Part shown: in pieces, positions 1 through 20,328 of the stretch
Layout of the letters: each line of letters starts with the position of its first letter
How positions within the stretch are numbered: position 1 is the first letter of the stretch
NCBI GenBank assembly: GCA_951812955.1
Contig: OX638340.1
Location: 3,360,001-3,424,000 of the forward strand
Direction: 5' to 3'
Length of the DNA: 64,000 nucleotides
From: an uncultured Gemmatimonadota bacterium
GTDB taxonomy: Bacteria; JAAXHH01
Made by a program: the position numbers and the translations under genes
Notes under the pieces: generated by a model
Told to the model about the DNA's origin: nothing
Database searches by the model: none
Seen by the model: the letters and a program-made list of their open reading frames with translations, nothing else

Positions 1-1202
1 CAACGCACGTCGAACTGTCCTCCCTGGCGGCCGCCCTGAACGAAATGGCCGCGCAATCAAAGGAAAGGCTTTCGCAGATCCGGGAAGAAAACGCCCAGCT
101 CGAAGCGGTGCTGTCCGGCATGGCGGAAGGCGTAATGGTGACCTCCGCGGAAGGGCGTATCCTGATGGTCAACCCGGCTTTCAAGCGCATGATGGACGTG
201 GACGCATGGTGCCTGAACAAGCGGCCCATCGAGGTAGTCCGCAACCACGACCTGCAAAGCGTTGTGGAGGCCGCGATCGATTCGGCGCCCTCCCTGCACG
301 AGGATGCCGTGATCGACCTGACGCTGGAGTGGAGCCAGCGCATCTTCCAGGTGCATCTGACCCCTATACGCATCGGCGAGCGGCTTCATGGCGTGGTTGC
401 CGTGTTTCACGACATGACCGAACTGCGCCACCTGGAGCAGGTTCGGAAAGACTTCGTGGCCAACGTGTCCCACGAACTGCGGACGCCCCTGACCTCCATC
501 AAAGGCTATGTCGAAACGTTGCTGGACGGCGCCATGGAGGATTCCGACGCGCTGCGCCGATTTATGACGTCCATCCAGCACCATGCCGACCGGCTGCAGG
601 CGCTGGTCGAGGACCTTCTGCAACTGTCCAGAATAGAGTCGGGCCGGTACGAGGTCGAATTCACGGCCTGCCACCTGGACCGGGTTTCGGAGCGGGTCGC
701 CGAGATCTTCGCGAAGCAGATCGACCGCAAGCAGCTTGTTTTCTCGTTGCGGTTCGAAACGGACAACCCGGCGCGCGGAGACCCCGAACTCATGGAACGG
801 GCCCTGTCCAACCTGGTGGACAACGCCGTGAAATACACGGAGAAAGGCGGATCGATCGCCATCCGCACCGTGGAAAGGGACGACGAAATCATCCTGTCGG
901 TCGCCGATACGGGACCGGGCATACCGTCCGATGCGCTCCCACGTATTTTCGAACGCTTTTTCCGGGTGGACCGGGCACGGTCCAGGGCGCTGGGCGGAAC
1001 AGGCCTGGGTCTCGCGATCGTCCGGCACACCATGGAATTGCTCGGTGGCAAGGCATGGGTCGAGAGCAGGCTCGGCGAAGGCGCGACCTTCTACCTTTCC
1101 CTGCCCGTGTGGGCGGAGGATGAGCAAGCCGGCGATTCGAACCGTGCGCTTCGGACGGCGCGGGAAGAAAACCCCGAAACCCCAACGGGCAGTCAGGCTT
1201 AA
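1..1202 (+). CDS. phoR: Sensor histidine kinase, PhoR-like (5' partial; reading frame is open to position 3 upstream of the listed ATG at 45)
   Basis: PAS-like segment, then HisKA H-box FVANVSHELRTPLTSIKGY, then HATPase_c G-box GGTGLGLAIVRH. No in-frame stop between nt 3 and 45 (VELSSLAAALNEMA looks like a HAMP end). pstCAB-phoU and ppk lie in the same neighbourhood. Confidence 0.6.
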   Translation, partial: THVELSSLAAALNEMAAQSKERLSQIREENAQLEAVLSGMAEGVMVTSAEGRILMVNPAFKRMMDVDAWCLNKRPIEVVRNHDLQSVVEAAIDSAPSLHEDAVIDLTLEWSQRIFQVHLTPIRIGERLHGVVAVFHDMTELRHLEQVRKDFVANVSHELRTPLTSIKGYVETLLDGAMEDSDALRRFMTSIQHHADRLQALVEDLLQLSRIESGRYEVEFTACHLDRVSERVAEIFAKQIDRKQLVFSLRFETDNPARGDPELMERALSNLVDNAVKYTEKGGSIAIRTVERDDEIILSVADTGPGIPSDALPRIFERFFRVDRARSRALGGTGLGLAIVRHTMELLGGKAWVESRLGEGATFYLSLPVWAEDEQAGDSNRALRTAREENPETPTGSQA

Positions 1203-1337
1203 AAGAACCATCCCCCCTGATCTCTGCGCCTGGTTGGACCGGGGACGGTCCAGCCGAAGCCGCAGGTACCGCGGTCTGTTCATCAGAAAAACACCATCGG
1301 ATCACGGGTGTTTTCAGGGCAAAACACACATTAGCCC

Positions 1338-1366
1338 TTGACAGTCCCAACCCTCCGGCATTTATT
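1338..1366 (+). promoter_or_regulatory. Candidate sigma70-like promoter (TTGACA-N17-TTTATT) upstream of the tandem small membrane protein genes
   Basis: TTGACA at 1338-1343 and TTTATT at 1361-1366 with a 17-nt spacer, in a lower-GC intergenic stretch. Confidence 0.25.
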
Positions 1367-1615
1367 AGGTACATAATCCAAAAAACGCAATAGAACAATC
1401 GGGAATCAGGCCCGATTTCGCAGGACTCCGACCAGGCTTCTGAAGGCAGTCATGACGCGCGGACGCGTGCGCTTGACTGAACCGGTTTGAAGGAAGTTAG
1501 CGACCGGTGCGGCTTACTGTGCGTACCCGACGCAAGTTCGTCTCGCCGTCGTTTCACGTCATCGGTGCGCGAATGCGGATGCGGTGGCATAACCATTCTC
1601 CTCCAGGAGGTAGGT

Positions 1616-1945
1616 ATGGCAACCAGAGTTATTGTGGGACTGATCGCCCTTCTGTCCATCGTGCAGGGTTTGGCAGGCGGCATGATGGCAGATGGCGGTA
1701 TCGTGATGCTCGTGATCGTGCTCCTGGGCATCATTTACGGTTTCATGGGGGTGGACGCGGAGGACGCGACGGACTATCTCGTCGTGACAATTGCGGTCGG
1801 CGCGGCGGCGAGCGCAAATGCACTGAGCGGAATACCGGGCATTGGGATGCACTTGGACAATATACTCGATCCCGCGAGCATGGCCCTCTACGCCAGCGTA
1901 GCTTCCATTCTGATCATGCGTACGGTCAACCGGATGAAGGGTTGA
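1616..1945 (+). CDS. Small integral membrane protein (109 aa, ~3-4 TM), paralog A of a tandem pair; function unknown
   Basis: Strong SD AGGAGG 6 nt before the ATG at 1616. Starts MATRVIVGL..., closely parallel to paralog B (MATRIIVGL...). Hydrophobic TM segments. The ORF-track start at 1487 is rejected. Confidence 0.6.
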   Translation: MATRVIVGLIALLSIVQGLAGGMMADGGIVMLVIVLLGIIYGFMGVDAEDATDYLVVTIAVGAAASANALSGIPGIGMHLDNILDPASMALYASVASILIMRTVNRMKG

Positions 1946-2039
1946 CGATCGCGCCCGTGGATCCCTGGAACCAGTCCGGGCGATTCACCTGGAACGGTCG
2001 CATTTAGGATTCGCAATCCCCGTTTAGGAGGTTAGGTCT

Positions 2040-2369
2040 ATGGCAACACGAATTATCGTTGGACTTTCGCTTCTGCTGGCGGTGGTAGAAACACTGGCGC
2101 CCGGCGCCCTGTTATCATCAATGATCGTGATGATGGCGCTGGCGATCCTTGGCCTGCTCTATGGGCATATGGCGATCGATGCGGAAGATGCGACGGGCTA
2201 CCTGGCGGTCACGATAGCCGTAGGTGCGGCGTCGGGCATGGACGTGCTAGGTAATATCCCGGCAGTCGGCAGCTACCTCGACGGCATCATGGACATGGTC
2301 ACCGTCGTCCTATACGCCGGCGTCGCATCCATACTCGTCAAGCGGGTGAAAGCCCGCATCGGGTGGTAG
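2040..2369 (+). CDS. Small integral membrane protein (109 aa), paralog B (~45% identity to A)
   Basis: SD AGGAGG before the ATG. Shared motifs with A: DAEDATxYLxVTIAVGAA and YA(S/G)VASIL. Confidence 0.6.
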   Translation: MATRIIVGLSLLLAVVETLAPGALLSSMIVMMALAILGLLYGHMAIDAEDATGYLAVTIAVGAASGMDVLGNIPAVGSYLDGIMDMVTVVLYAGVASILVKRVKARIGW

Positions 2370-2393
2370 TGTCGTAAAAAAGAAGCAGACGTA

Positions 2394-2455
2394 GAAAAAA
2401 ACAGGCGGATCGGGGAGTCCTTGAACTTCCCTGGTCCGCCTGTTTCGATAATACC
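2394..2455. terminator. Bidirectional rho-independent terminator between the convergent small-protein gene and ppk
   Basis: Perfect inverted repeat CAGGCGGA...TCCGCCTG (2401-2408 / 2443-2450), flanked by an A7 run on one side and TTT on the other. Confidence 0.5.
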
Positions 2456-2504
2456 AAACTTAAAAAGGGTCCTGGCCGGCCCTTATAAGGATCCTTTCTC
2501 CCCT

Positions 2505-4802
2505 TCAGGCTTCCGTCCTGCCCTTCAAAGGAGCCGTCCTCCCCTTCAGGCTTCCGGCCCCACGCGTACGAGCGCGTTTCGAGCCGTTGTTGACCCTGAC
2601 CGTTTCACAGGCCTGTTCGTATAATTCCCTCTGAGACTGTAAACGACTACCCGCCTTCTTCACGTACCGGTACGTTCCATCCGACTGCAATTCCCGCGCC
2701 TTCACGTTGTCCTTCAACTGGATTTTCAAATACGCCCACAGTTCCGCCTGGAGCGCACGGTCGACGACCGGGAAGGAAACTTCAACGCGCCGGTTGAGAT
2801 TCCGGTCCATCCAGTCCGCGCTGGAAAAGTAATACTCCGGGTCTCCGTCGTTGTAGAAATAGAAGAGGCGGACGTGTTCGAGAAACCGGTCGACGATGCT
2901 GATGACGCTGATGTTCTCGCTCAGACCCGGAACACCTGGTCTCAGGCAGCATATGCCCCGAATGATCAGCTGAATCTGCACGCCGGCCTGTGACGCCTGG
3001 TACAGCTCGACGATCATGTCCGGGTCGACGAGCGAATTGATCTTGGCGATTATGAGGGCCGGCTGGCCGTTTCGGGCCCGCTCGCTTTCCCTCCGCAGCC
3101 TTTTAACCATGTCCTCCCGCATCGACGTGGGAGAAAGGATGAGGTGGTGAAAGTGCTTGGGCAGCGCGTAACCCGTCAGCAGGTTGAACAACTGCGTTAC
3201 GTCCTCGCCGAATTCCTCCTTGTCCGTGAACAGGCCGAAATCGGCGTATATCCGTGCCGTCTTGTCGTTGTAATTCCCCGTGCCCAGGTGACAGTAGCGG
3301 TGAATTGCGTCGCCTTCGCGGCGCACCACCAGGCAGGCCTTGCAATGGACCTTTATGCCTGGTATGCCGTAGATGACGTGGGCCCCCGCTTCCTCGAGCT
3401 GCCTTGCCCACTGGATGTTCGCCGCCTCGTCGAACCGGGCCTTCAATTCCAGCAGCACCGATACTTCCTTGCCGTTTTCCGCCGCCCGGGTCAGCGCCCG
3501 TGTAATCGGCGAGTTTGCGCTCACTCGGTACAGCGTCATCTTGATGGCGAGCACGCTGGGGTCTTCCGCCGCTTCCGAAACGAAACGGACTACCGCGTTG
3601 AACTGATGGAAGGGGTGGTGCAGCAGGATGTCTTCCTTCTTGATGGCGTCCCATATGGAAGGGGCTCCCTCGAAGGACATCGCCGGCTGGGGCGGGAAGG
3701 GTTCGTCCATGAGATCCGGCCGGTCGATGGCATCGTAGAACTCGATGAGATCGGAAAAGGCGGTGAAACCCTCCGTGGGGTAAAGGTCCTCCTGCTCCAG
3801 TTCCAGTTCGTCCACCAGGATGTCCAGGACGCGGGTGGATAACTCCGGATCGTACTGCAGCCGGACGGCAGCCCCGTTTCGCCGGTTTCTTATGCCCTCC
3901 TCGATGACCGTCAGCAGGTCCTCCGCGCCTTCCTCCTCGTAGTCCACGTCGGCGTCCCGCGTCACGCGGATCGACGCGCAGTTCAGCACCTCGTAGCCGT
4001 TGTAGAACAGGTCGAGGTTCATGAGGATGACGTCCTCCAGCATGAAGAACGCCTGCCGGCCGTTCTCGGACGGTAGTTCGAGGAATCGCGGCATGACGGA
4101 TGTGGGCAGGTGGATGACTGAAAGGTTTGTGTGGGGAAAGACGGACCGCTGGATCTTCCGGATTTCAGCCACCAGGCAGAGCGTGCCGTTGGCCAGGTAG
4201 GGAAAGGGATGTCCCGGGTCTACCGCCAGCGGGGTCACCACGGGCAGTATGGTCTTCCGGAAGTACTCGTCCAGGTAGGCCTTCTGCGAAGGGCTGAGCT
4301 GTTCGGGCTTGAGTATGTCGATGCCCTGCTCGGTGAGCTGCGGGAAGATCTCGTTGATGAACAAGCCGTGCTGCTTGTTGACCAGTTCGTGCATCCTGGC
4401 CGAAAGGGCGGTCATCACCTCTCTGGGACTCAGGCCGTCCGCGGTCCGCGTGGATTGGATCTGCGCATCGATCTGTCTTTTGACGCCGGCGACGCGGATC
4501 ATGAAGAATTCGTCCAGATTGGTACTGAATATGGCCAGGAACTTCACTCGTTCCAGCAGGGGCACCGACGGATCGAGCGCTTCCTCGAGCACCCGCGCGT
4601 TGAACTCCATCCAGCTGAGTTCCCGGTTGAAGAAGTGCTCCGGGCGCCAGTAGTTCGTCACCAGCGGTGCCGTGGACGGCCGGGGCTTTCGGGTGAAGCG
4701 CCGGCCGGCTCGCTTAGAGGCGATGGTTCGAACCGTTGCGGTCCTGGCGTTGTTTCTTTTTGCAGTTGGCATTACCAGGTCACCAGAGATGATTGCGGAC
4801 AT
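2505..4802 (-). CDS. ppk: Polyphosphate kinase 1 (the true start may be an internal codon; N-terminus is ~40 aa longer than E. coli PPK)
   Basis: Canonical PPK1 N-domain NRELSWMEFNARVLEEA...VKFLAIFSTNLDEFFMIRVAG and PLD-like C-domains, along 765 aa. Confidence 0.9.
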   Translation of the reverse strand: MSAIISGDLVMPTAKRNNARTATVRTIASKRAGRRFTRKPRPSTAPLVTNYWRPEHFFNRELSWMEFNARVLEEALDPSVPLLERVKFLAIFSTNLDEFFMIRVAGVKRQIDAQIQSTRTADGLSPREVMTALSARMHELVNKQHGLFINEIFPQLTEQGIDILKPEQLSPSQKAYLDEYFRKTILPVVTPLAVDPGHPFPYLANGTLCLVAEIRKIQRSVFPHTNLSVIHLPTSVMPRFLELPSENGRQAFFMLEDVILMNLDLFYNGYEVLNCASIRVTRDADVDYEEEGAEDLLTVIEEGIRNRRNGAAVRLQYDPELSTRVLDILVDELELEQEDLYPTEGFTAFSDLIEFYDAIDRPDLMDEPFPPQPAMSFEGAPSIWDAIKKEDILLHHPFHQFNAVVRFVSEAAEDPSVLAIKMTLYRVSANSPITRALTRAAENGKEVSVLLELKARFDEAANIQWARQLEEAGAHVIYGIPGIKVHCKACLVVRREGDAIHRYCHLGTGNYNDKTARIYADFGLFTDKEEFGEDVTQLFNLLTGYALPKHFHHLILSPTSMREDMVKRLRRESERARNGQPALIIAKINSLVDPDMIVELYQASQAGVQIQLIIRGICCLRPGVPGLSENISVISIVDRFLEHVRLFYFYNDGDPEYYFSSADWMDRNLNRRVEVSFPVVDRALQAELWAYLKIQLKDNVKARELQSDGTYRYVKKAGSRLQSQRELYEQACETVRVNNGSKRARTRGAGSLKGRTAPLKGRTEA

Positions 4803-5067
4803 GCGGCGCGTGACGGTCTCGCGCGCACTACCGCATCACGAATGCTGTTCAGATGTCAGCGGACCGGACGGGACCGGATTGGGCCAGACCGGGCCGGATC
4901 AATATGAATTGCGCCCCGGTCCGAGTAACAATAAAGCGGGACGCAAGGCGATGTTGTCAAGCCGTCTTTACCCTGTCGATCGTGTCTAACAAGAAAAATG
5001 CACATTAGTCATATCGTCATTGCGCCGTCATGGTTTTGTCATTCGACATCGTTATAATAAGCCGTGA

Positions 5068-5613
5068 ATGAACGAAGAACTGACAAAGAATCGTGGAGAA
5101 GTCATGCAAAAGAGTCGTGGCGAAGTCATGAAAATGAATGAAGTGTTGGATGTACTTAAAGGAAGCCTGGCCAAGGTAGACGGCATGAAGTTCTTGCTGG
5201 ACTACGAGGATCTCATCTGGCGCATGGCGCCGAACGCCCAATCCGTACAGGCGTTGCTGGAAGATATGGTCGACGCGGAACAGCAACTCTGGTCCGCCCT
5301 GCTGCCAGGGTGCCTGGAATCCCGGCAACGCCGCATCTTTCAAGATCGTCTCCGCGAACGGAATCGATTCTGGCAAAAGAACGACAACCGCCTCGGCATT
5401 TTCAACCAGTTTCTCAGCAACCGGCGCATTACGCTGCTTCTGCTCGAAGATTTAGCGGGAAATGACTGGAACAGGAATGCCCCCGACGGAATGGATGAAG
5501 GATCCGTCGTCGACCAGGTCGATCGCCTGATCGAGCGCCAGAACCAGTGCCTTACCATGATCCAGGGGATACTGAACGAGCGGTTCGAAGCAATGAAGAA
5601 AAGCGCCGTATGA
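5068..5613 (+). CDS. Hypothetical soluble protein (181 aa) inside an AT-rich patch; N-terminus has two copies of a 24-nt repeat (KNRGEVMQ/KSRGEVMK), so several in-frame SD+ATG starts exist
   Basis: ORF with GGAG-like SDs before the ATGs at 5068, 5104 and 5128. No recognisable domain. Local GC is clearly lower than the ~65% flanks. Confidence 0.4.
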   Translation: MNEELTKNRGEVMQKSRGEVMKMNEVLDVLKGSLAKVDGMKFLLDYEDLIWRMAPNAQSVQALLEDMVDAEQQLWSALLPGCLESRQRRIFQDRLRERNRFWQKNDNRLGIFNQFLSNRRITLLLLEDLAGNDWNRNAPDGMDEGSVVDQVDRLIERQNQCLTMIQGILNERFEAMKKSAV

Positions 5614-5671
5614 GGAACCTGGTGTCTACCACCCGATCTCCGGGAATCACGCCATCAATAAACTCTGTCCT

Positions 5672-5727
5672 TGTCATGGCCTTGTATGCTGTTCGTCACA
5701 GAATCGTCAAACAACCTCTTTATAATG
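5672..5727 (+). promoter_or_regulatory. Pho-box-like direct repeats (TTGTCAT / TTGTATG / TCGTCAC at 11-bp phasing) followed by a perfect TATAAT, about 90-145 bp upstream of the TonB receptor gene
   Basis: Heptads begin at 5672, 5683 and 5694 (11-bp period, TGTCA core as in the E. coli CTGTCAT Pho box). TATAAT at 5722-5727. Confidence 0.35.
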
Positions 5728-5816
5728 CCCGTGTCAATCATGTCTATCATACCAGACTCTCGCATAAAACACGCCTGCAATCGGGTTCATAGAACACAAA
5801 CAGAGGGAGATGCCGC

Positions 5817-8759
5817 ATGACGAATGTCTACCTGTTCTGCAATAACCGGATCTCGAAAACCGGGCCGGGCCGTGTGGCCAGGTCGATGCTCGTCGCAGTG
5901 ATCGCCGTCGCGGTCCTGGTGGGCGCGGCCGCGGAGGCCGGCGCACAGCAGTCCGTGGGCCGCATATCCGGAACGATAGTCGACGCGGAGACCGGCGATT
6001 CCCTGATCGGCGCGACGGTGATGGTGGTGGGACTCGAACTTGGCGCGATGGCCGATCTTGAAGGCGCCTTTCTCATCCGAAACGTCCCCGCCGGCCGGCA
6101 CACCATCCTGGTATCCATGATCGGGTACGGGCAGAAGCGGGTCACCGAGATCCAGGTCGACCCCGGACAGGTGAGTCGAATAGACATCGCCGTCGAGCAG
6201 GAACTTCTCGTGGCGGACGTGGTTGAGGTGACGGCCCGGGCCCTGGAAAACACGGAAGCGGCGCTTCTGAAGCGCCGTCAAAACGCCCTTTCCATCAGTG
6301 ACGCCATCAGCGCGGAGGATATCTCGCGGGGCGCACAGGGCGACGTGGCCGCGGCCATGACCCGCGTCACCGGCGCGTCGGTGGTGGACGGCAAGTACGT
6401 CTACATTCGAGGTCTGGGCGAACGGTACAGCACCGCGCAGTTGAACGGCACGACCTTGCCGAGTACCGATCCCAACAGCCAGTCGGTGCAGATGGATATC
6501 TTCGCGACGAACCTGCTGGACAACATCACCACGGAGAAGTCCTTTACGCCGGACAAACCGGGCAACTTCACCGGCGGCAGCGTCAACGTCAAGACCAAGT
6601 CGCTTCCCGAGTCCTTCACCATGTCTTTCTCCACGTCCACGAAATACAACTCCCAGTCTTCCTTCAAGGACATGTTGAGTTACGACGGCGGTGAATACGA
6701 TTTCCTGGGCTTCGACGACGGCACCCGGGATATACCCCTGCCCCTTCAGAATCCCGAGTTGGATATACCCAGCATTACCAGTGCGTTCCGGGACCCGGAA
6801 GCCGCCCAGTTGCTGGATCTCTATTCCAAGTCGTTCGCAGATAAGTCGATGACGCCGACCACAATAAAAGGCGGACTCGGTCAGAGCTACTCATTTTCGA
6901 TGGGAAACCAGACGACGGTTTTCGACCGCCCGTTCGGGATGTTGGGAAGCGTGAGTTACAATCGAAACATTTCGGCGTACGAGAACGGCGTTTCCGGTAT
7001 ATGGAAACGCGTGTCCAGGGAATCCGAGGGGCTGAACAGAGAGCGGTTCGCCACGGACATGAGCGGTTCCGAGGAGGTGCTCTGGGGCGGACTGTTAAAC
7101 GCCACCTACCAACCGAGCATCACGCACGAAATCGGCGCCAACGTGCTATACAATCGCAGCGGTGAGAAGCTGTCCAGGTTTCAAACCGGCGCCTGGCCTT
7201 CCTCCCTGCCCGGCGACAACGTTCGGTACGAGACCCGCGTGCTGTCCTTCATCGAGCGTGAAATGCGTTCCCTGCAGTTCCGCGGCAAACATGTCCTTCC
7301 GTCCGTATCCAACATGGAAATCGAGTGGACCGGCGCTTTCATCAGGTCTACGCAGGACGAACCGGACCTGCGCTACTTCACCAACGAGTTCCGGACGGTC
7401 GACGCGGCCGGCGAAGGAACTCCGGAAGTGGACAGCTATACAATCGCGCTCTCGAACTACGCGGCACCGACGCGATACTTCAGGAATCTGGAAGAATCGA
7501 ACAGGGACTTCAGGCTGGACCTGACGCTGCCTTTCTCCCAGTGGTCCGGACAAACCGCCCGCCTCAAGGTAGGCGGCGCATACCTGGACAAGGACCACAC
7601 CTTCCGCGAGAGACGCTTTTCCTTCTTCCAGGACGACTTGCAGTACAGGAACGATCCATCAGTCTTCTTTTCCTCCGATCGCACCGGGATACTGCCGGCC
7701 GAGCTCCAAACCACCCCCGGCTTTACCCGGTTCGGGAATTTCGTGTCCGAGGATTCCAAACTCAGAAACAATTACGACGGTGATCAGCAAATCGGCGCCG
7801 GTTACCTGATGCTGGACCTGCCGCTCAGCAGGCAACTCAAGGTCGTTGGCGGCGTCCGCTACGAGTCCACCCTGCTGGACGTGGTCAGCCACGACGATTT
7901 GCTTTCGCCAGGCAGCATGGACGAGAAGGACTGGCTACCGTCGATGAACGTGGTGTACCAGGTCGTGGACGACATGAATGTACGAGGCGCTTTCAGCCGT
8001 ACCCTGGCCAGACCTTCGTTCCGCGAACTTGCGCCGTTCGCTTCCTTCCTCTTCGTCGGCGACTACACTTTCGTCGGCAACAGCGAGTTGAAGCGAACCC
8101 TTATCGAGAATTACGATCTCCGCTGGGAGTGGTTTTCACGGCCCGGCGAGATATACGCCCTCAGCTATTTTTACAAGAAGTTCGAAAACCCGATCGAGCG
8201 CGTGATTGTAACCACGAACGGCGAAATCCAGTTTCAGAATGTCGACAATGCATATGTTACGGGCGTGGAAATGGAATTCCGGAAGCAGCTCGACCAGGTC
8301 CATCCGTTTTTGAGCAACTTCCAGATCGGCGGAAATCTCTCCCTGGTCAGGTCCCAGGTGGATATCGCGCAGTCGGAACTCGCCATTATTCGAGCTCTCG
8401 ATCCAACCGCCGGGGACTCCCGAAAATTGCAGGGCCAGTCACCCTACGTGGTAAATATCGATGCCATGTACGACAACCTCGATACCGGGACCCTGGTCAG
8501 CGTTCATTACAACGTGTTCGGCGAAAGACTTGCCGAGGTCAGCACGGGCGGAACGCCGAACGCCTTCGAGCAGCCCGCGGGCATGCTCGATTTCACGGGC
8601 TCGCAGCGGCTCGGAGACCGGGTGACGCTGAAGTTTTCGGCCAAGAACCTCCTCGATCCCGACATCAAGAAAGTCCATCCCTTCAACAACGCGGAGTTCA
8701 TCCGCAGCCTCTACAAGCGGGGAAGAACGTTTACCCTGGGTCTCTCATACGGGATATAG
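5817..8759 (+). CDS. TonB-dependent outer-membrane receptor, SusC-like architecture (CarboxypepD_reg N-domain + plug + 22-strand barrel)
   Basis: SD GAGGGAG before the ATG at 5817. Signal peptide ...AVLVGAAAEAGAQQ. CarbopepD_reg segment ISGTIVDAETGDSLIGATVMVVG...AFLIRNVPAGRHTILVSMIGY. Plug segment VVDGKYVYIRGLGERYSTAQLNG. Barrel ends ...FTLGLSYGI. Confidence 0.8.
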   Translation: MTNVYLFCNNRISKTGPGRVARSMLVAVIAVAVLVGAAAEAGAQQSVGRISGTIVDAETGDSLIGATVMVVGLELGAMADLEGAFLIRNVPAGRHTILVSMIGYGQKRVTEIQVDPGQVSRIDIAVEQELLVADVVEVTARALENTEAALLKRRQNALSISDAISAEDISRGAQGDVAAAMTRVTGASVVDGKYVYIRGLGERYSTAQLNGTTLPSTDPNSQSVQMDIFATNLLDNITTEKSFTPDKPGNFTGGSVNVKTKSLPESFTMSFSTSTKYNSQSSFKDMLSYDGGEYDFLGFDDGTRDIPLPLQNPELDIPSITSAFRDPEAAQLLDLYSKSFADKSMTPTTIKGGLGQSYSFSMGNQTTVFDRPFGMLGSVSYNRNISAYENGVSGIWKRVSRESEGLNRERFATDMSGSEEVLWGGLLNATYQPSITHEIGANVLYNRSGEKLSRFQTGAWPSSLPGDNVRYETRVLSFIEREMRSLQFRGKHVLPSVSNMEIEWTGAFIRSTQDEPDLRYFTNEFRTVDAAGEGTPEVDSYTIALSNYAAPTRYFRNLEESNRDFRLDLTLPFSQWSGQTARLKVGGAYLDKDHTFRERRFSFFQDDLQYRNDPSVFFSSDRTGILPAELQTTPGFTRFGNFVSEDSKLRNNYDGDQQIGAGYLMLDLPLSRQLKVVGGVRYESTLLDVVSHDDLLSPGSMDEKDWLPSMNVVYQVVDDMNVRGAFSRTLARPSFRELAPFASFLFVGDYTFVGNSELKRTLIENYDLRWEWFSRPGEIYALSYFYKKFENPIERVIVTTNGEIQFQNVDNAYVTGVEMEFRKQLDQVHPFLSNFQIGGNLSLVRSQVDIAQSELAIIRALDPTAGDSRKLQGQSPYVVNIDAMYDNLDTGTLVSVHYNVFGERLAEVSTGGTPNAFEQPAGMLDFTGSQRLGDRVTLKFSAKNLLDPDIKKVHPFNNAEFIRSLYKRGRTFTLGLSYGI

Positions 8760-8831
8760 CGCAGAATGACGACTTGCGGGGACGCTCGACCTTTTCAATC
8801 TCAACTGCCAGCTCAATTAAGGAGGAGTAGT

Positions 8832-11800
8832 ATGTTTCGGCGGAATGCCATCGCTGCAATTTTGGTATCGTTGTTTTTACCAGTCCTCGCAGAAGCACAA
8901 TCCAACCCGGTCGTTTCAGTCACAGACTCGGACATCGTGGGTAACGTGACCTTCACGTCGAACAACACGTACCTGCTCTCGGGCCTGGTGTTCGTGGAGG
9001 ATGGCGAGACGCTTACGATCGAACCCGGCACGGTGATCAAGGCGCGTCCGGCGGACGCCGACGGTGTGGTCTCGGCATTGATTGTAGCGCGCGGCGGGAA
9101 GATCTTTGCTGACGGTACGGCGATGGATCCCATCATCTTCACGGCCGAGGCCGACAATGTGGACGATCCGGACGACATCCTGCTCACCTCGGAAGCGGCC
9201 TCGCGGGGGTTGTGGGGCGGCGTGATCATCCTGGGCAGGGCATCGATCAACGCGGCCACGGGCATGAACAACATAGAAGGCATAGACACGACTGAGCCGC
9301 GGGGCATCTACGGCGGCGGCTCGTTCCCCGACGATAACGACAACTCGGGCGTGTTTCGCTACGTGTCGATCCGCCACGGCGGCGCGCGGATCGGAGCGGA
9401 CAACGAGATCAATGGGCTGACGATGGGCGGCGTGGGGCGTGGCACGACGATAGAGCACGTGGAGGTGTTCTACAACCAGGACGACGGGTTCGAGTGGTTC
9501 GGGGGCACGGTGAATACGCGTTACCTGGTGGCGGCCTTTGCCGGCGACGACAGCTTCGACTACGACGAGGGCTTCCGCGGTGAGCACCAGTTCTGGTTCT
9601 CTATCCAGGATCCGGCCGTAGGCGACCACGCCGGCGAGCACGACGGCGGCACCAAGCCGGAGGATGGCAGGCCGTACGCCAGTCCCACGATCCTGAACGC
9701 CACGTACATTGGGCGGGGCGCTTCCTCGATGGGGGGCAAGGCGAATAACGCCCTGATCTTCCGCGACAACGCGGGGGGCATGTATTTCAACAGCATCTTC
9801 ACCGAGTTCCAGGGCCGGATGCTGTCGATCGAGGACCTCGAGGGCAATGCGGGCACGGACAGCCGCGCGCGTCTTGAGGCCGGCGACCTTGCGTTCCAAA
9901 ACAACATCCTGGGTGCCTTCGGCGCGGGCAACACGCCATCGCAACTCGCCGCCGAGTCCGAGGATCACACGGCCATGGTGCTTTCAGATCCCGGGAACAT
10001 GATCCGAATCGTAGATCCACAATTGCAGGGCATCAACTGGAACCGCAACCGGGGGCTGGACCCACGACCCGGTACCAACAGTCCTGCCTGGGATGCGAGC
10101 CAGCTCAAGGAAGAACCCCGGAACACCGGGTTCTTTACGGACGTCGATTACGCAGGGGCATTCGGTACGGAAAACTGGGCGGCGGACTGGTCGGCCCTCG
10201 CGGACCTGGGCTATTTCAGCACCGCACCTCCACCCGAGCCGCCGGAGCCCGGGGTTGTTACTGTCACAGACTCGGACATCGTGGGTAACGTGACCTTCAC
10301 GTCGAACAACACGTACCTGCTCTCGGGCCTGGTGTTCGTGGAGGATGGCGAGACGCTTACGATCGAACCCGGCACGGTGATCAAGGCGCGTCCGGCGGAC
10401 GCCGACGGCGTGGTCTCGGCATTGATTGTAGCGCGCGGCGGGAAGATCTTTGCCGACGGTACGGCGATGGATCCCATCATCTTCACGGCCGAGGCCGACA
10501 ATGTGGACGATCCGGACGACATCCTGCTCACCTCGGAAGCGGCCTCGCGGGGGTTGTGGGGCGGCGTGATCATCCTGGGCAGGGCATCGATCAACGCGGC
10601 CACGGGCATGAACAACATAGAAGGCATAGACACGACTGAGCCGCGGGGCATCTACGGCGGCGGCTCGTTCCCCGACGATAACGACAACTCGGGCGTGTTT
10701 CGCTACGTGTCGATCCGCCACGGCGGCGCGCGGATCGGAGCGGACAACGAGATCAATGGGCTGACGATGGGCGGCGTGGGGCGTGGCACGACGATAGAGC
10801 ACGTGGAGGTGTTCTACAACCAGGACGACGGGTTCGAGTGGTTCGGGGGCACGGTGAATACGCGTTACCTGGTGGCGGCCTTTGCCGGCGACGACAGCTT
10901 CGACTACGACGAGGGCTTCCGCGGTGAGCACCAGTTCTGGTTCTCTATCCAGGATCCGGCCGTAGGCGACCACGCCGGCGAGCACGACGGCGGCACCAAG
11001 CCGGAGGATGGCAGGCCGTACGCCAGTCCCACGATCCTGAACGCCACGTACATTGGGCGGGGCGCTTCCTCGATGGGGGGCAAGGCGAATAACGCCCTGA
11101 TCTTCCGCGACAACGCGGGGGGCATGTATTTCAACAGCATCTTCACCGAGTTCCAGGGCCGGATGCTGTCGATCGAGGACCTCGAGGGCAATGCGGGCAC
11201 GGACAGCCGCGCGCGTCTTGAGGCCGGCGACCTTGCGTTCCAAAACAACATCCTGGGTGCCTTCGGCGCGGGCAACACGCCATCGCAACTCGCCGCCGAG
11301 TCCGAGGATCACACGGCCATGGTGCTTTCAGATCCCGGGAACATGATCCGAATCGTAGATCCACAATTGCAGGGCATCAACTGGAACCGCAACCGGGGGC
11401 TGGACCCACGACCCGGTACCAACAGTCCTGCCTGGGATGCGAGCCAGCTCAAGGAAGAACCCCGGAACACCGGGTTCTTTACGGACGTCGATTACGCAGG
11501 GGCATTCGGTACGGAAAACTGGGCGGCGGACTGGTCGGCCCTCGCGGACCTGGGCTATTTCAGCACCGCACCTCCACCCGAGCCGCCGGAGCCCGGGGAA
11601 CCGGAAGAAGAAGCGCCGGACGCGTTCAGCCTGTCGCAGAACAGTCCGAACCCCTTCGGCATGACCACGAATATAGAGTACGCAGTATCTTCGACGAGCC
11701 ACATACTGATCGAGGTGTACAACATTCGGGGCCAGCGGGTAGCCATGGTCGTTAACGATATCAGGCTTCCGGGGCAGTACTCGGAGATATGGGACGCTCA

Positions 11801-11897
11801 GCACCTTTCAAGCGGCGTATATTTCTACCGCTTCGAGGCTACGGCGGATGGGCGGACCGCCCACGTTTTTAACAGGAAGATGACGCTTCTGAAGTGA
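8832..11897 (+). CDS. T9SS-secreted protein (1021 aa): signal peptide, two near-identical 448-aa modules of unknown function, and a Por-secretion C-terminal sorting domain
   Basis: Strong SD AAGGAGG before the ATG at 8832. Signal peptide MFRRNAIAAILVSLFLPVLAEA. C-terminus LSQNSPNPF...HILIEVYNIRGQRV...SGVYFYRFEA matches the TIGR04183-type T9SS CTD. The internal modules carry no recognisable catalytic motif. Confidence 0.75.
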   Translation: MFRRNAIAAILVSLFLPVLAEAQSNPVVSVTDSDIVGNVTFTSNNTYLLSGLVFVEDGETLTIEPGTVIKARPADADGVVSALIVARGGKIFADGTAMDPIIFTAEADNVDDPDDILLTSEAASRGLWGGVIILGRASINAATGMNNIEGIDTTEPRGIYGGGSFPDDNDNSGVFRYVSIRHGGARIGADNEINGLTMGGVGRGTTIEHVEVFYNQDDGFEWFGGTVNTRYLVAAFAGDDSFDYDEGFRGEHQFWFSIQDPAVGDHAGEHDGGTKPEDGRPYASPTILNATYIGRGASSMGGKANNALIFRDNAGGMYFNSIFTEFQGRMLSIEDLEGNAGTDSRARLEAGDLAFQNNILGAFGAGNTPSQLAAESEDHTAMVLSDPGNMIRIVDPQLQGINWNRNRGLDPRPGTNSPAWDASQLKEEPRNTGFFTDVDYAGAFGTENWAADWSALADLGYFSTAPPPEPPEPGVVTVTDSDIVGNVTFTSNNTYLLSGLVFVEDGETLTIEPGTVIKARPADADGVVSALIVARGGKIFADGTAMDPIIFTAEADNVDDPDDILLTSEAASRGLWGGVIILGRASINAATGMNNIEGIDTTEPRGIYGGGSFPDDNDNSGVFRYVSIRHGGARIGADNEINGLTMGGVGRGTTIEHVEVFYNQDDGFEWFGGTVNTRYLVAAFAGDDSFDYDEGFRGEHQFWFSIQDPAVGDHAGEHDGGTKPEDGRPYASPTILNATYIGRGASSMGGKANNALIFRDNAGGMYFNSIFTEFQGRMLSIEDLEGNAGTDSRARLEAGDLAFQNNILGAFGAGNTPSQLAAESEDHTAMVLSDPGNMIRIVDPQLQGINWNRNRGLDPRPGTNSPAWDASQLKEEPRNTGFFTDVDYAGAFGTENWAADWSALADLGYFSTAPPPEPPEPGEPEEEAPDAFSLSQNSPNPFGMTTNIEYAVSSTSHILIEVYNIRGQRVAMVVNDIRLPGQYSEIWDAQHLSSGVYFYRFEATADGRTAHVFNRKMTLLK
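8919..11606 (+). repeat. Direct tandem duplication, 2 x 1344 bp (copy A 8919-10262, copy B 10263-11606), >99.8% identical over 1336 bp
   Basis: Identical antisense ORFs appear at a 1344-nt offset in the ORF track (8916-9968 vs 9984-11312; 9560-9934 vs 10904-11278). Aligning the plus-strand text by eye finds two mismatches, both synonymous: GGT/GGC near 9075/10419 and GCT/GCC near 9109/10453; the alignment was not checked base by base. Confidence 0.9.
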
Positions 11898-12099
11898 TCC
11901 TGAAGCCGGCATAGTGGGCCGCAACCGGTATACTTCACCGATGCGGACCGTTCAGAGAGTCGATTGGGGCCTCGCGTATGTACTTATGCGGGGCCCTGTT
12001 GTTTTATACGGCGTTCCGCCGGGGTTGACGCGGTACGGGGCCACATCTATTTTTAACACGTTGCCCCCATTGTATCAATCCACTATCCAGGACTATCGG

Positions 12100-13230
12100 A
12101 TGACTGATCGCGCCCGGGGACGCCGGATTGACCGGCGCCGTCTGCTGGACTTACTGTTCGGTCGCCTGGCCGCACTGGGCGGTATTGCGCTGATACTGAC
12201 CATACTGGCGGTCTTTGCCGTGATACTGTGGGTCATTTACCCCTTGTTCCTGTCGCCCGCGGAATACCGCTGGGATACCCCCGGTCCCGATGGAATCGAG
12301 TCCGGATACGGCATCCTGCCCCTGATCTTCGGGACCCTGAAAGGCGCGGTGTACACCCTGCTTTTTGCGGTGCCCGTTTCGGTGCTCGCCGCGCTCTACG
12401 CGTCGCAGTTTCTGCCACGGTCGCTGAAGGAAAACCTGAAACCGCTGGTGGAAATCATGGCCGCGGTGCCGAGCGTCGTGCTCGGATTTATCGGCGGCAT
12501 ATGGCTCGCACCGTTCCTGGCGTCCCACGTTTTCGCACTCTTCCTCGCGCCGGTATTTATCGCAGGCACCGTTTTGACCGCTTTTCTGGTCAGACACCAT
12601 GCCCCGGTCCGGTTTCTGGTATTTAATCATCCGGGCAGGGAATTCTGGCTGCTCCTGGCCGCCGTGTTGGCCGGGGGATGGCTGGCCCTGGAATGCGGGG
12701 CGTTGCTTGAGGCCGCCTATCTGCATGCGGGCTACGAAACGTGGCTTGAAGAATCCCTGGGACTGACCTACGAGGAACGAAACGCGATTGTCGTGGGTAT
12801 GGTCATGGGGCTGGCGGTGACCCCGATCATATTCACCATATCCGAGGAAGCGCTTTCCGCTGTGCCCCGTTCGTTTTCTGAAGGATCCATGTCGCTGGGG
12901 GCCTCACGCTGGCAGACCGCCATACGCATCGTCCTTCCCGCCGCGGGCGCCGGGATCCTGTCCGCCGTCCTGCTGGGATTCAGCAGGGCGATCGGGGAGA
13001 CCATGATCGTGCTGTTTGTTTCGGGCAATGTCCCGGCCATGGACTGGTCCGCTTTCTCCGGGTTCAGGGCGCTGTCCGCCAACGTAGCGCTCGAATTGCC
13101 GAACGCTGCGCGGGACGACAGCCTCTACCGGGTCCTGTTTTTCGCCGCCTTTCTCCTCCTCGTTTCGACTTTTGCGATTAACATCGTGGCCGAACTGGTT
13201 CGACGACGACTGAGACGGCGGTATGCCTAA
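12100..13230 (+). CDS. pstC: Phosphate ABC transporter permease PstC (the ORF-track GTG at 11914 is an alternative start)
   Basis: Collinear with E. coli PstC: GILPLIFGTLKGAVYTLLFAVPVSVLAALYASQF...PLVEIMAAVPSVVLGFIGGIW, plus the EAA loop ...ASRWQTAIRIVLPAAGAGI. Confidence 0.85.
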   Translation: MTDRARGRRIDRRRLLDLLFGRLAALGGIALILTILAVFAVILWVIYPLFLSPAEYRWDTPGPDGIESGYGILPLIFGTLKGAVYTLLFAVPVSVLAALYASQFLPRSLKENLKPLVEIMAAVPSVVLGFIGGIWLAPFLASHVFALFLAPVFIAGTVLTAFLVRHHAPVRFLVFNHPGREFWLLLAAVLAGGWLALECGALLEAAYLHAGYETWLEESLGLTYEERNAIVVGMVMGLAVTPIIFTISEEALSAVPRSFSEGSMSLGASRWQTAIRIVLPAAGAGILSAVLLGFSRAIGETMIVLFVSGNVPAMDWSAFSGFRALSANVALELPNAARDDSLYRVLFFAAFLLLVSTFAINIVAELVRRRLRRRYA

Positions 13231-13265
13231 GCGCCGGGCGGTCCGCCCGCACGCAAGGAGATACG

Positions 13266-14693
13266 ATGGGTTCGAAGTGGTCAAAGGATGACGCCTTGAT
13301 CTGGTTGTCCGGGGGGGGTCTGGTCCTCGGCTGCCTGATGGTGGCGGGACTGTTCCTGGTGATCGTCGTACATGGACTGGACCGGTTCTGGCCCCAGGAC
13401 CTGACACGGTACACGCTGCACGACGGCGGGGTTGTCCTGGGCCACGAGGCGTCCCGTGAGGACGTACTTACAACCAACGCCAGGGGTGAGCGTTCTGTGG
13501 CATACCGTTTGAGGATCCGGACCGGTGACCGGGACCGGTATCCGGACGACTACGTCTGGCTGGAGGAAGGCCGCGTCACTTGGCGGGATGTCCCACGCGA
13601 GGCCGTGGTGGTGGAACAGGTTCGGGGCGGGGACTTATTCGGATTCCTGGATTCCTTCGTGGACGATGGCACGGTCGTCGCCCTGGGTTACGATGACGTC
13701 TGGGCACTTTACCAGGAGGGGTACCCGGAACTGGAACGGCTGCGCCGGCAGAGGTCGCTTTCTATCGTCCTGTCTTCGGCGGATGGCCGGCCGAGCACCA
13801 TTTCACTTGCTGACGTCCAGCGGATCTATACGCCAAATGCGATGACGGCGTGGACAAGGATCCGCCACTATATGGCCAGTGCGTGGTCCTACCTGTGGGC
13901 GCCCCCGCGGGACGAAAACCGCCAGGGCGGGGTCTTTCCTGCTGTCTTCGGCACGGCGGCGATGGTCATCCTCATGTCGGTCGTTGTCATGCCCTTCGGC
14001 GTGCTCGCGGCCTTCTACCTGAGAGAATACGGAAAACCGGGTCCGTTCCTGAACGCGGTACGTATCGCCGTAAACAGCCTGGCCGGAGTGCCGTCCATCG
14101 TCTTCGGGGTTTTCGGGCTCGGTTTCTTCGTGTATTTTGTGGGAGGCATCCTGGACCGTCAGTTCTTCCCGGAGGCACTTCCGGGACCGACATTCGGCCG
14201 GGGCGGCATCCTCTGGTGCTCACTGACCCTGGCCTTGCTCACATTGCCCGTGGTCATCGTGGCCGTGGAGGAAGGCCTGGCCGCCGTGCCATCGGGACTC
14301 CGCGAAGCGTCCCATGCCCTGGGTGCGACGCGGTTCGAGACGCTTTGGCGCGTCGTCGTACCCGTGGTGCTGCCATCCATTCTCACGGGTCTGATCCTGT
14401 CCGTGGCGCGGGCGGCCGGTACCGTGGCGCCGCTCATGATCGCCGGGGTCGTCGCCTTTTCTGCCGATTTGCCCGTGGACGGCGAATGGCCGTTCGTGCA
14501 CCTGGATCGCGAGTTCATGCACCTGGGATTTCATATCTTCGACACCGGTTTCAGGCCCGGCGAAGGAGATGCGGCGCTATCCATGGCCTACACTTCCACC
14601 CTGTTGCTGCTGGCCATCGTGGTCGCACTGAACGCGGCGGCGATCGGGCTCAGAAGCCGGTTGAGGAGACACTATTCGCTGGCCGCGCCATAG
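13266..14693 (+). CDS. pstA: Phosphate ABC transporter permease PstA (long form with a large periplasmic insert)
   Basis: C-terminal half matches PstA ([14 protein letters not shown]...[40 protein letters not shown]). Six TM segments. Follows pstC. Confidence 0.85.
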
Positions 14694-14766
14694 GCGTACC
14701 CGGTCCGCGTACGATCCCGATCCGCGGCATACGAGATCCCGGTCCGCTTACAAGAGGTATAATCGC

Positions 14767-15564
14767 ATGACGATGGAAAATGCGCCGTTCACGCCGAAGA
14801 TCATGCGCGAAGAAACAATCATCGATGTCGAGAACGTGTCCTTCTGGTACGGGGACAGGGCCGCGCTGAGGAACGTTTCCATGGCGATCGATCGCCATGT
14901 CATCACGGCCTTCATCGGACCGTCAGGCTGCGGCAAGACGACATTGCTGCGGCTGTTCAACCGCATGAACGACCTGGTTCCCCAGACCCGCATGACGGGA
15001 TCGATCCGGATGAACGGAGCAGACATCTACGGCCCGGATACCGACGTCACGCGTCTGCGCCGGCGCGTGGGCATGGTCTTCCAGCAACCGAATCCCTTTC
15101 CCAAGTCGATCTATGAGAACGTAGCCTATGGCCCCCGAATCCATGGGGTGAAGTCCGGGGAATTTCTCGACGAGATCGTGGAACGGTGCCTGCGAAGGAC
15201 GGTGCTGTGGGACGAGGTTCAGGATCGGCTCGAAGAAAGCGCGCTCAAACTCTCCGCCGGACAACAGCAACGGCTTTGTATCGCGCGGGCGGTCGCCGTC
15301 GAACCGGAAGTCCTGCTCATGGACGAGCCGTGCTCGTCACTGGACCCGGTCGCCACGTCCAGGATCGAGGAATTAATGCTTGATCTGAAGGATGATTACA
15401 CCATTGTTATCGTGACACACAATATGCAGCAGGCAGCGCGTGTGTCGGAATACACCGGGTTCATGCTCAAGGGCGAACTGGTGGAAATGGGTGTGACCGA
15501 CGTGATGTTCACCACGCCGGGGGACCGGCGCACGGAGGATTACATTACGGGTCGTGCGGGATAG
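14767..15564 (+). CDS. pstB: Phosphate ABC transporter ATP-binding protein PstB
   Basis: Walker [10 protein letters not shown], signature [15 protein letters not shown], Walker [12 protein letters not shown], and a PstB-type C-terminus. Confidence 0.92.
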
Positions 15565-15595
15565 CGACCCGTGATACTGACCGAATAAGGCGACC

Positions 15596-16300
15596 ATGGA
15601 GACCCACCTTCAGCAACAACTGGAAGACCTGAAATCCGCCCTGCTGAGGATGGCGGCGCTGGTCGAGGAACAGATCGCGCGGTCGATTACCGCTATGATG
15701 GAGCGGGACGTGGAATTGTGCGACCAGGTCATCCGCGGAGATCAGCCCATTGACGCCATGGAACTGGAGATCGACGATCAGTGTATCAGGTTGCTTGCTC
15801 TCCAGCATCCCATCGCGCGGGACCTTCGCTTCGTTGCGGCCAGCATGAAGATTACGATCGACCTGGAACGGTTGGGCGACATCGCAGTCAACATCGCCAA
15901 GAAAACGAAACGGCTCGTGGGGATGCCCCTCCTGAAACCGATCGTCGACATTCCGCGCATGGCCGAAATGTCCCAGTCCATGGTGAAGGACAGCCTCAAC
16001 GCCTTCGTCCGCGGAGACGAGCAACTGGCCGTGGACGTCTGCGTAAGGGACGAAGCGGTAAATCAACTGCAGGACCAGGTCTTCCAGGATCTGGTGACTG
16101 CCATGGTGGAAGATTCGGCGACGGTGCCCCAGGCGCTCCAGTTGATCTTCATATCCCGCCACGTCGAACGGCTCGCAGATCACGCCACGAACATCGCCGA
16201 AGGGGTGGTGTATTTCTCAGAAGGCCGCGTGATCAAGCATCATGGGAATGACGATCCGAATCAGCCACCCAATCGTCCAGTATCCGGTGGGCCTGCGTGA
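15596..16300 (+). CDS. phoU: Phosphate signalling complex protein PhoU
   Basis: Two PhoU repeats (...RDLRFVAASMKITIDLERLGDIAVNIAKK... and ...ISRHVERLADHATNIAEGVVY). Directly downstream of pstB. Confidence 0.88.
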   Translation: METHLQQQLEDLKSALLRMAALVEEQIARSITAMMERDVELCDQVIRGDQPIDAMELEIDDQCIRLLALQHPIARDLRFVAASMKITIDLERLGDIAVNIAKKTKRLVGMPLLKPIVDIPRMAEMSQSMVKDSLNAFVRGDEQLAVDVCVRDEAVNQLQDQVFQDLVTAMVEDSATVPQALQLIFISRHVERLADHATNIAEGVVYFSEGRVIKHHGNDDPNQPPNRPVSGGPA

Positions 16301-20312: not shown

Positions 20313-20328
20313 GATCGAACCTCCTTTT

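Follow-up and report, generated by a model that had tools for sequence, protein, structure and literature searches.

Proteins of the small multidrug resistance (SMR) type (EmrE/SugE, paired EbrAB) have about 105-110 residues and span the membrane with four helices. They function as dimers, some of them occurring as tandem paralogue pairs that form heterodimers. Other small membrane proteins include the Fluc/CrcB channels, which have dual topology, and PsiE of E. coli, a phosphate-starvation-inducible, polytopic inner-membrane protein of unassigned function. At the RNA level, the ompA-type 5' untranslated region combines two stem-loops with a single-stranded segment before the strong Shine-Dalgarno (SD) sequence of a membrane-protein gene. 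Here we describe two tandem genes, A and B, located between a phoR-like kinase gene and ppk1 in a 64,000-nucleotide stretch (contig OX638340.1, hereafter the window) of an uncultured Gemmatimonadota bacterium. They belong to a family of 109-residue membrane proteins that is undescribed in every library searched and whose structured RNA leader, new to Rfam, travels with the gene across phyla. Their position in a phosphate locus is probably incidental.

A and B resemble SMR proteins in length and number of helices. However, A, B and 86 relatives gave no match to PF00893 at E<=1, and the family has no invariant acidic residue in helix 1: the membrane Glu of SMR proteins is not conserved there, position 17 being E in B, Q in A and E/Q/H-variable in the family, with Q as consensus. 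The Lys/Arg bias is the same in both paralogues, which argues against an antiparallel A/B pair. Unlike the Fluc/CrcB channels, A and B are both positive at the N and C termini, and they match no Pfam family. PsiE is comparable as a small, Pho-linked inner-membrane protein; A and B differ from it in having no PF06146 match, a promoter without Pho-box-like repeats and a phosphate linkage that is confined to one clade. The A/B leader shares the general layout of the ompA type and, where a promoter is readable, its stem-loops start shortly after that promoter. The two leaders are unrelated in sequence, the SD of A is paired with an adjacent anti-SD tract, and a stabilising role of the A/B leader would be assigned by analogy. 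In their distribution, A and B recall the families enriched in sponge symbionts, such as eukaryote-like repeat proteins, and GPP34 in Actinobacteriota (PMC11706023). Members of the A/B family likewise occur in sponge-associated genomes of several unrelated phyla that share a niche, are rare elsewhere and have plausibly spread horizontally. The enriched families, however, consist of eukaryotic-type domains for interaction with the host, either soluble or secreted, whereas A and B are small integral membrane proteins with no eukaryotic counterpart detected, and the likeness is one of host lists.

Genes A and B and their protein family

An earlier annotation of the window, made from its letters alone (the sequence-only reading), had predicted two 109-residue open reading frames (ORFs) encoding paralogous small polytopic membrane proteins, and both are found where it placed them (Table 1). 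BLASTP aligns A and B without gaps at 52% identity (56/107) and 71% positives (E 2e-34), so that the paralogy holds while the earlier figure of about 45% was too low. The motifs quoted at that time are also present, as DAEDATDYLVVTIAVGAA in A and DAEDATGYLAVTIAVGAA in B for the first, and as YASVASIL in A and YAGVASIL in B for the second. Both genes had been credited with the strongest SD sequences in the window. When AGGAGG was counted 3-10 nucleotides (nt) before the start codon of any ORF of at least 60 residues over the whole window, four sites were retained (A, B, 8820(+) and 20325(-)), which places A and B among the strongest but not alone at the top. The site at 8820(+) precedes a 1043-residue protein with a secretion tail, and that at 20325(-) a 174-residue minus-strand ORF.

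Relatives were collected by a scan of GTDB with one genome per species, which gave 161 confirmed loci; the best 80 of these 161 were fetched and listed. The family profile recovers 108 copies in these 80 loci plus the window, with E values from 1e-36 to 1e-48, and length and motifs are retained across phyla. Within the narrow clade that shares the surroundings of A and B (the window lineage), substitutions are most frequent at third codon positions, less so at first and least at second positions. The median ratio of non-synonymous to synonymous substitution rates (dN/dS) against the window is 0.16 for A, 0.29 for B, 0.085 for ppk1 and 0.16 for phoR, at a dS of 0.4-0.8. Both genes are under purifying selection. 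B is the less constrained copy, with 62-96% protein identity where Ppk1 keeps 88-98% (in most syntenic genomes, 62-67% against 88-95%), and its amino-acid sequence evolves about three times faster than that of PhoR or Ppk1. Windows of high GC content hold many long chance ORFs, and A and B could in principle be two of these. This idea was rejected: the 108 profile matches come from six differently labelled bacterial lineages, and the codon-position bias, the dN/dS values below 0.3, the strong SD sequences and the confident predicted fold all make it hardly conceivable that the frames are spurious.

In a neighbour-joining tree the sequences cluster according to their host lineage. Clade A and clade B each extend over the entire window lineage, and the duplication is therefore older than the radiation of that lineage. 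The hairpin that follows gene A lacks a U-tract, which suggests that A and B share a transcript and are separated on it by an element for processing or stability. Comparable hairpins stand before copies 2 and 3 of a triplicated locus (L065).

The sequence-only reading had found no recognisable family, and profile searches agree with it. Scans of A, B and their relatives against Pfam, NCBIfam, PHROGs and PADLOC gave no significant match, and a profile search of PDB sequences returned nothing at E<=10. When 88 members were scanned singly, only scattered chance matches below the cut-offs were obtained (Dicistro_VP4 in 11, Phage_holin_3_1 in 8 and ATPase_gene1 in 4). Foldseek against viral structures (BFVD) gave nothing at E<0.78, and neither a homologue nor a carrier contig was detected among phages (INPHARED), plasmids (PLSDB) or IMG/VR. 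At 90% identity the family forms 66 clusters, none of which (0/66) contains a Pfam domain. An exhaustive profile search of 1.84 billion protein representatives yielded 107 matches at E<=1e-3 and 53 at E<=1e-10, a very small number relative to 15 billion proteins. Orphan small membrane proteins are common as such, and the function of the A/B family is one that we infer.

The weakest profile matches correspond to a sister group of about 103 residues (P0127, P0174-P0221; L090-L094) in which the helix pattern and IPxxGxYL are kept and the DAEDAT turn is replaced by another sequence, acidic in most members. It is encoded by an unannotated lone gene in Pseudomonadales metagenome-assembled genomes (MAGs), Maricaulis and Tara samples. 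Some of its members are mislabelled UreF or MscS in one source.

AlphaFold2, run with a 36-sequence alignment, predicts a confident four-helix bundle (pLDDT 89, pTM 0.79) with helices at 2-19, 27-45, 48-66 and 77-107, and the hydropathy profile agrees with four transmembrane helices. Across the family, Lys and Arg are confined to the N terminus (R4; mean 1.1) and the C-terminal tail (mean 2.8). According to the positive-inside rule, this indicates a predicted topology with both termini in the cytoplasm. Acidic charge is concentrated in the 46-52 turn (DAEDAT; mean 2.9) and in the 67-85 loop (IPxxGxxLDxIxD; 3.4), which would lie on the cytoplasmic and the outer side, respectively. The positions L37, G38, A48, D50, L55, A60, G62, L70, G77, L80, D81, I83, L91 and V95 are invariant in the family.

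The structured leader of the family

Alignment of the 60 nt before the start codons revealed the same hairpin, GUCACGG-N16-18-CCGUGAC, in different phyla (P2 in Table 1). In the window lineage the 240 nt from promoter to ATG are conserved while neighbouring synonymous sites have diverged (dS ~0.8). Base pairs of P2 covary, with UA/UG/CG and AU/GC/GU alternatives, one pair being AU 26 times, GC 9, GU 3 and CG once, and the base of P1 shows compensatory changes across phyla. Variants with G-U wobbles in L065, L068 and L080 (e.g. GUUGCGG/CCGUGAC) keep the P2 helix, which favours a structured RNA over a palindrome in the DNA. In a 40-sequence leader alignment 91.7% of the cells are paired, compared to 42-54% with slid partners, these counts being inflated by the fitting of the alignment to the model; 12 leader pairs show double changes. 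In the predicted fold of the window leader, UCUCC (1597-1601) pairs with the GGAGG of the SD sequence.

A covariance model made from 15 leaders, all of the window lineage, was run over loci of other lineages, about 0.9 Mb in total. All matches at E<0.6 lie immediately upstream of a family gene, the others being two at E>0.8. They come from Rhodothermales, from two clades labelled Latescibacterota/Gemmatimonadota and, weakly, from Marinacidobacterales. Among the leader coordinates outside the window are L020 7925-8003, L065 7081-7179, L067 7896-8003 and L085 4896-5003. The leader was not found in the Gammaproteobacteria L029/L047, in Micropepsaceae or in the 103-residue sister group. A search of positions 1100-2600 against Rfam 15 at E<=10 gave nothing in the leader and three chance microRNA-family matches on the terminator hairpin at 2391-2454; over the whole window no match reached a gathering score.

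The predicted promoter carries a consensus-like -35 box, TTGACA (1338-1343), that is invariant in 12/12 aligned genomes and is followed 17-19 nt further by the AT-rich, -10-like TTTATTAG. No GTCAT repeat is present in this promoter region. The T-run after phoR is conserved across the lineage alignment. Two other candidates were discarded: CTTGACTGAAC at about 1471, read as a promoter before the invariant TTGACA superseded it, and an upstream leader peptide (ATG 1452, 12 codons), whose frame is not conserved.

Genomic surroundings, hosts and copy number

The gene order phoR-A-B-ppk1 is seen in 20 of the 80 loci, all within one narrow clade in which Ppk1 is 88-98% and PhoR 81-96% identical. Because Ppk1 is so similar in that clade, conservation of gene order is expected there anyway. 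Outside it, the gene is always an isolated unit between unrelated neighbours, flanked on each side by 100-670 nt of non-coding DNA, and no Pst, PhoU, PhoR or Ppk gene was detected within 8 kb (among the best 80 of 161 loci). The neighbours are a TonB-dependent receptor and an FAD oxidoreductase in Rhodothermales, FabV and DHFR in one gammaproteobacterial genome, a halogenase cluster and IS21/rve transposases in Micropepsaceae, and AAA_5 and CMD/DegT genes around the tandem triplet of other Latescibacterota. In Micropepsaceae (L088/L089, 5534-10339) a single copy abuts the IS21-type and rve transposase gene cluster. Clustering of raw six-frame ORFs is noisy in GC-rich DNA; an apparent neighbour common to 29 loci ('c2') was artefactual and consisted of ORFs in alternative frames that overlap the family gene, its remainder being one real outer-membrane beta-barrel gene in L048.

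All of the best loci (80/80, of 161 confirmed) are in MAGs. Their labels are Latescibacterota, Gemmatimonadota, Rhodothermales, Gammaproteobacteria (Pseudomonadales, Ca. Azophilus and Ca. Foliamicus), Ca. Marinacidobacterales and Micropepsaceae, so that five or six lineages of major rank are represented. Searches of the literature for Marinacidobacterales, Foliamicus, Azophilus and several accession numbers gave no result. Bins with the prefixes APA_ and SB06xx_ are symbionts of Aplysina aerophoba and Ircinia ramosa (PMC11706023), and PNGco_ and SB06xx_ bins are among the sponge-associated Entoporibacteria (PMC7883664). One protein is identical on a GenBank bin and in IMG 3300003254, a Petrosia ficiformis sponge metagenome. 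Every genome with a traceable origin (APA_, SB06xx_ and PNGco_ bins, IMG 3300003254) has a sponge source. The prefixes RHO, COS and IRC are those, we assume, of Rhopaloeides, Coscinoderma and Ircinia bins.

Copy number varies, with one, two or three copies in tandem and several per genome in Marinacidobacterales. In these genomes of 9-10 Mb, several copies are at least 98% identical and form 370-530-bp units with a fixed right end. In each of the loci L039, L041-L044, L046 and L048-L050 a copy lies around 7835-8361, and the surroundings are packed with other dispersed repeats of 60-350 bp; the copy in L048 stands between a type I restriction R subunit gene and the outer-membrane beta-barrel gene. 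A Latescibacterota-labelled clade (L065, L068, L080, L081-L084) has three tandem paralogues, each with its own hairpin and SD sequence, and leucine-rich-repeat genes a few kb from the triplet.

The first ~16 kb of the window (1-16300) form a genuine phosphate supercluster, which bears out the placement of A and B in a Pho locus. The upstream gene, named phoR by the sequence-only reading, encodes a PhoR/PnpS-like kinase; its full-length orthologue in L003 scores 393/400 bits for PnpS and 298/334 for PhoR, just under the equivalog cut-offs. A PhoB-like regulator lies upstream of phoR in sister genomes. The identity of ppk1, with which A and B are convergent as proposed, is secure by TIGR03705. 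The hairpin between B and ppk1, previously read as a bidirectional terminator, is preceded by an A-run and followed by UUUCGAU on the plus strand, whereas U7 follows it when the minus strand is read; it makes a good ppk1 terminator and a weaker one for the A-B unit. The supercluster shows no periplasmic PstS, for which the TonB-dependent receptor and the secreted 1043-residue protein may substitute. The region upstream of orf181 looks like a Pho-box promoter: four GTCAT boxes with spacings of 8, 11 and 11 nt stand directly upstream of TTATAAT (5008-5067), and the exact GTCAT-N6-GTCAT array occurs only there within the window. Farther downstream, 46280-49087 encodes a 935-residue protein in which PD40/beta-propeller repeats come after a eukaryote-type Ser/Thr kinase domain.

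Table 1. Features of the A-B locus and of the surrounding phosphate supercluster (window positions; aa, amino acids; MFE, minimum free energy).
Feature	Position	Strand	Remarks
PhoR/PnpS-like histidine kinase gene, 3' part	45-1202	+	Pfam PAS, HisKA, HATPase; 5' end cut by window edge
Short hairpin ACACC..GGTGT and T-tract, possible phoR terminator	1291-1315	+	low confidence; read from sequence
Promoter-like block	1338-1368	+	predicted; alignment of phoR-A intergenic region
Lineage-specific 5' leader part	1375-1499	+	more conserved than adjacent coding sequence
Hairpin ATCGGG..CCCGAT	1398-1416	+	inside 5' leader part
Near-invariant block CGCAGGACTCCGACCAGGCTTCTGAAGGCAGTC	1421-1452	+	96% identity
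GC hairpin	~1453-1476	+	inside 5' leader part
Hairpin P1	1500-1552	+	MFE fold, RNAalifold; 93% identical in window lineage
Hairpin P2	1558-1588	+	consensus GUCACGG-N16-18-CCGUGAC, common to several phyla
A/C-rich spacer, anti-SD pyrimidine tract and SD	1593-1615	+	small hairpin occludes SD
SD AGGAGG of gene A	1605-1610	+	5 nt upstream of ATG
Gene A	1616-1945	+	109-aa four-helix membrane protein; family profile E 6.6e-42
Inter-cistronic hairpin after gene A	1943-2002	+	computed fold; no U-tract
SD AGGAGG of gene B	2026-2031	+	8 nt upstream of ATG
Gene B	2040-2369	+	109-aa paralogue, faster-evolving; AlphaFold2 pLDDT 89
GC hairpin between B and ppk1	2399-2445	both	-36 kcal/mol, z -5.0, 47 nt
ppk1	2505-4802	-	TIGR03705, 883 bits vs cut-off 466
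orf181	5068-5613		unannotated 181-aa ORF; GTCAT array upstream
TonB-dependent receptor gene	5817-8759
Gene of 1043-aa protein	8766-11897		type IX secretion sorting tail
pstC	11914-13230		above NCBIfam cut-off
pstA	13266-14693		above NCBIfam cut-off
pstB	14767-15564		above NCBIfam cut-off
phoU	15596-16300		above NCBIfam cut-off

Proposed origin and possible role of the A-B unit

We favour, with moderate confidence, the view that A and B are the tandem duplicate of a self-contained accessory gene for a small acidic four-helix inner-membrane protein, shared by bacteria of one niche. The unit would comprise promoter, two-stem-loop leader, A/C/pyrimidine spacer, partly occluded SD sequence, coding sequence and terminator. 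Each unit carries its own expression signals, which points to an abundant, post-transcriptionally tuned membrane protein, and our best guess is one that is also self-sufficient and niche-specific. Leader and coding sequence would have spread together between phyla among symbionts of the same niche, by horizontal transfer as we infer, and certain symbionts would have amplified the gene. In the window lineage the unit would have landed between the convergent phoR and ppk1, been duplicated and then been inherited vertically. The T-tract after phoR followed by the invariant TTGACA block free of GTCAT repeats suggests that A-B is an independent insert, and the phoR/ppk1 gap is best taken for a neutral place of insertion, handed down within a single narrow clade. 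The protein may work as a homo-oligomer or, in the window lineage, as an A/B hetero-oligomer, as no dedicated partner is encoded next to it, and its acidic DAEDAT turn and IPxxGxxLDxIxD loop may serve, at the membrane surface, to bind cations or basic ligands. What suggests an oligomer that binds or conducts cations or basic molecules there is the conservation of this acidic turn and loop, together with helix faces of small residues and a lack of partners; the idea is tentative, and we give it a low probability at best.

The sequence-only reading had suggested that A and B could be small regulatory or accessory subunits that modulate, for example, the PhoR kinase or polyphosphate handling. It had named conserved synteny as one of its tests. 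Small membrane proteins are known as sensor-kinase modulators, and about 20 genomes indeed place the pair between phoR and ppk1, within a supercluster of the form phoB-phoR...pstCAB-phoU. At the level of the family, however, this synteny is absent: it is restricted to the clade with closely similar Ppk1, and the other lineages among the 80 loci have no phosphate gene within 8 kb. The promoter predicted for the pair itself also combines a consensus -35 box with the lack of a GTCAT array of the orf181 kind, and the fast evolution of B would be unexpected for a tightly co-adapted subunit. Membership of the Pho regulon is accordingly improbable as a general explanation. Nor do we find it probable that A and B are mobile-element cargo, such as a holin-like, superinfection-exclusion or defence-associated membrane protein. 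The patchy phylogenetic distribution, the Micropepsaceae copy abutting IS21 and rve transposases, and the near-identical multiple copies of Marinacidobacterales amid short dispersed repeats and beside a type I restriction R subunit would fit such an origin, which we nevertheless rate as poor: PHROGs gave at best E 0.3-0.76 and PADLOC nothing, phage, plasmid and viral collections hold no homologue or structural match, and most copies lie among housekeeping genes with no integrase or phage gene nearby. In the window lineage, dN/dS values of 0.16-0.29 over a dS of ~0.8 speak for a long vertical residence.

The role of the leader admits a further reading, in which it is a ligand- or temperature-sensing riboregulator and the protein a small transporter or exporter under its control, on the model of the fluoride/CrcB and guanidine/SugE pairs. 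A conserved structure with covariation does stand upstream of a single gene family and is kept across phyla, the adjacent anti-SD tract occludes the SD sequence, the recurring GUGAC, GUCAC and CCGUC could form alternative helices, and a four-helix product of about 109 residues with conserved acidic residues falls in the size class of several riboswitch-controlled exporters. However, the leader has no multi-helix junction, the cross-lineage alignment shows no unpaired core that is conserved, P1 has an entirely different apical part from one lineage to another, Rfam gives no match, and several clades of the family lack the leader. Two stem-loops and a spacer are equally explained by an mRNA-stabilising leader. 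Since the leader is missing in some clades and has no conserved unpaired core, we rate a putative mRNA-stabilising, translation-tuning leader above a riboswitch, and consider the riboregulator unlikely. Doubtful too, though a little less so, is the bolder proposal that the DAEDAT family is a symbiosis factor, needed in sponge tissue and exchanged between unrelated sponge symbionts together with a cis-regulatory RNA leader that would sense a ligand, an ion or temperature instead of stabilising passively.

Several observations weigh against the self-contained, niche-shared unit that we prefer. Thermodynamically, the window leader has a z-score of only -1.3, and the fitted alignment makes its pairing counts look better than they are. 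Documented habitats cover no more than a part of the loci: roughly half belong to identifier-only bins, presumably from a symbiosis genome project, whose sponge origin we assume, and one bin looks coral-derived (Plut_, which we take to be Porites). The ~103-residue sister group occurs in non-sponge marine genomes (Maricaulis, Tara), which leaves the DAEDAT subfamily as the only one that looks restricted to the niche. In the window lineage a 16-kb phosphate supercluster surrounds the pair, and sponge symbionts are polyphosphate accumulators; for these two reasons, a lineage-specific recruitment of A-B into phosphate physiology is possible. Finally, the biochemical role suggested for A and B is a guess from sequence.

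The self-contained unit carries a caution for annotation, as location in a textbook Pho locus apparently did not make A and B genes of the Pho system. Its apparent restriction to sponge-associated members of several phyla, its changes in copy number and its cross-phylum leader set the family apart from an ordinary hypothetical protein. In sponge microbiomes many phyla have converged on the same lifestyle, and the families known to be shared across symbiont phyla are mostly eukaryote-like repeat proteins, defence systems and a few others. If our reading is correct, the A/B family would be a new and tractable marker of this convergence, since a protein of 109 residues is easy to synthesise, express and locate, and the few structured leaders that accompany their gene from one phylum to another would be joined by an uncharacterised RNA motif.

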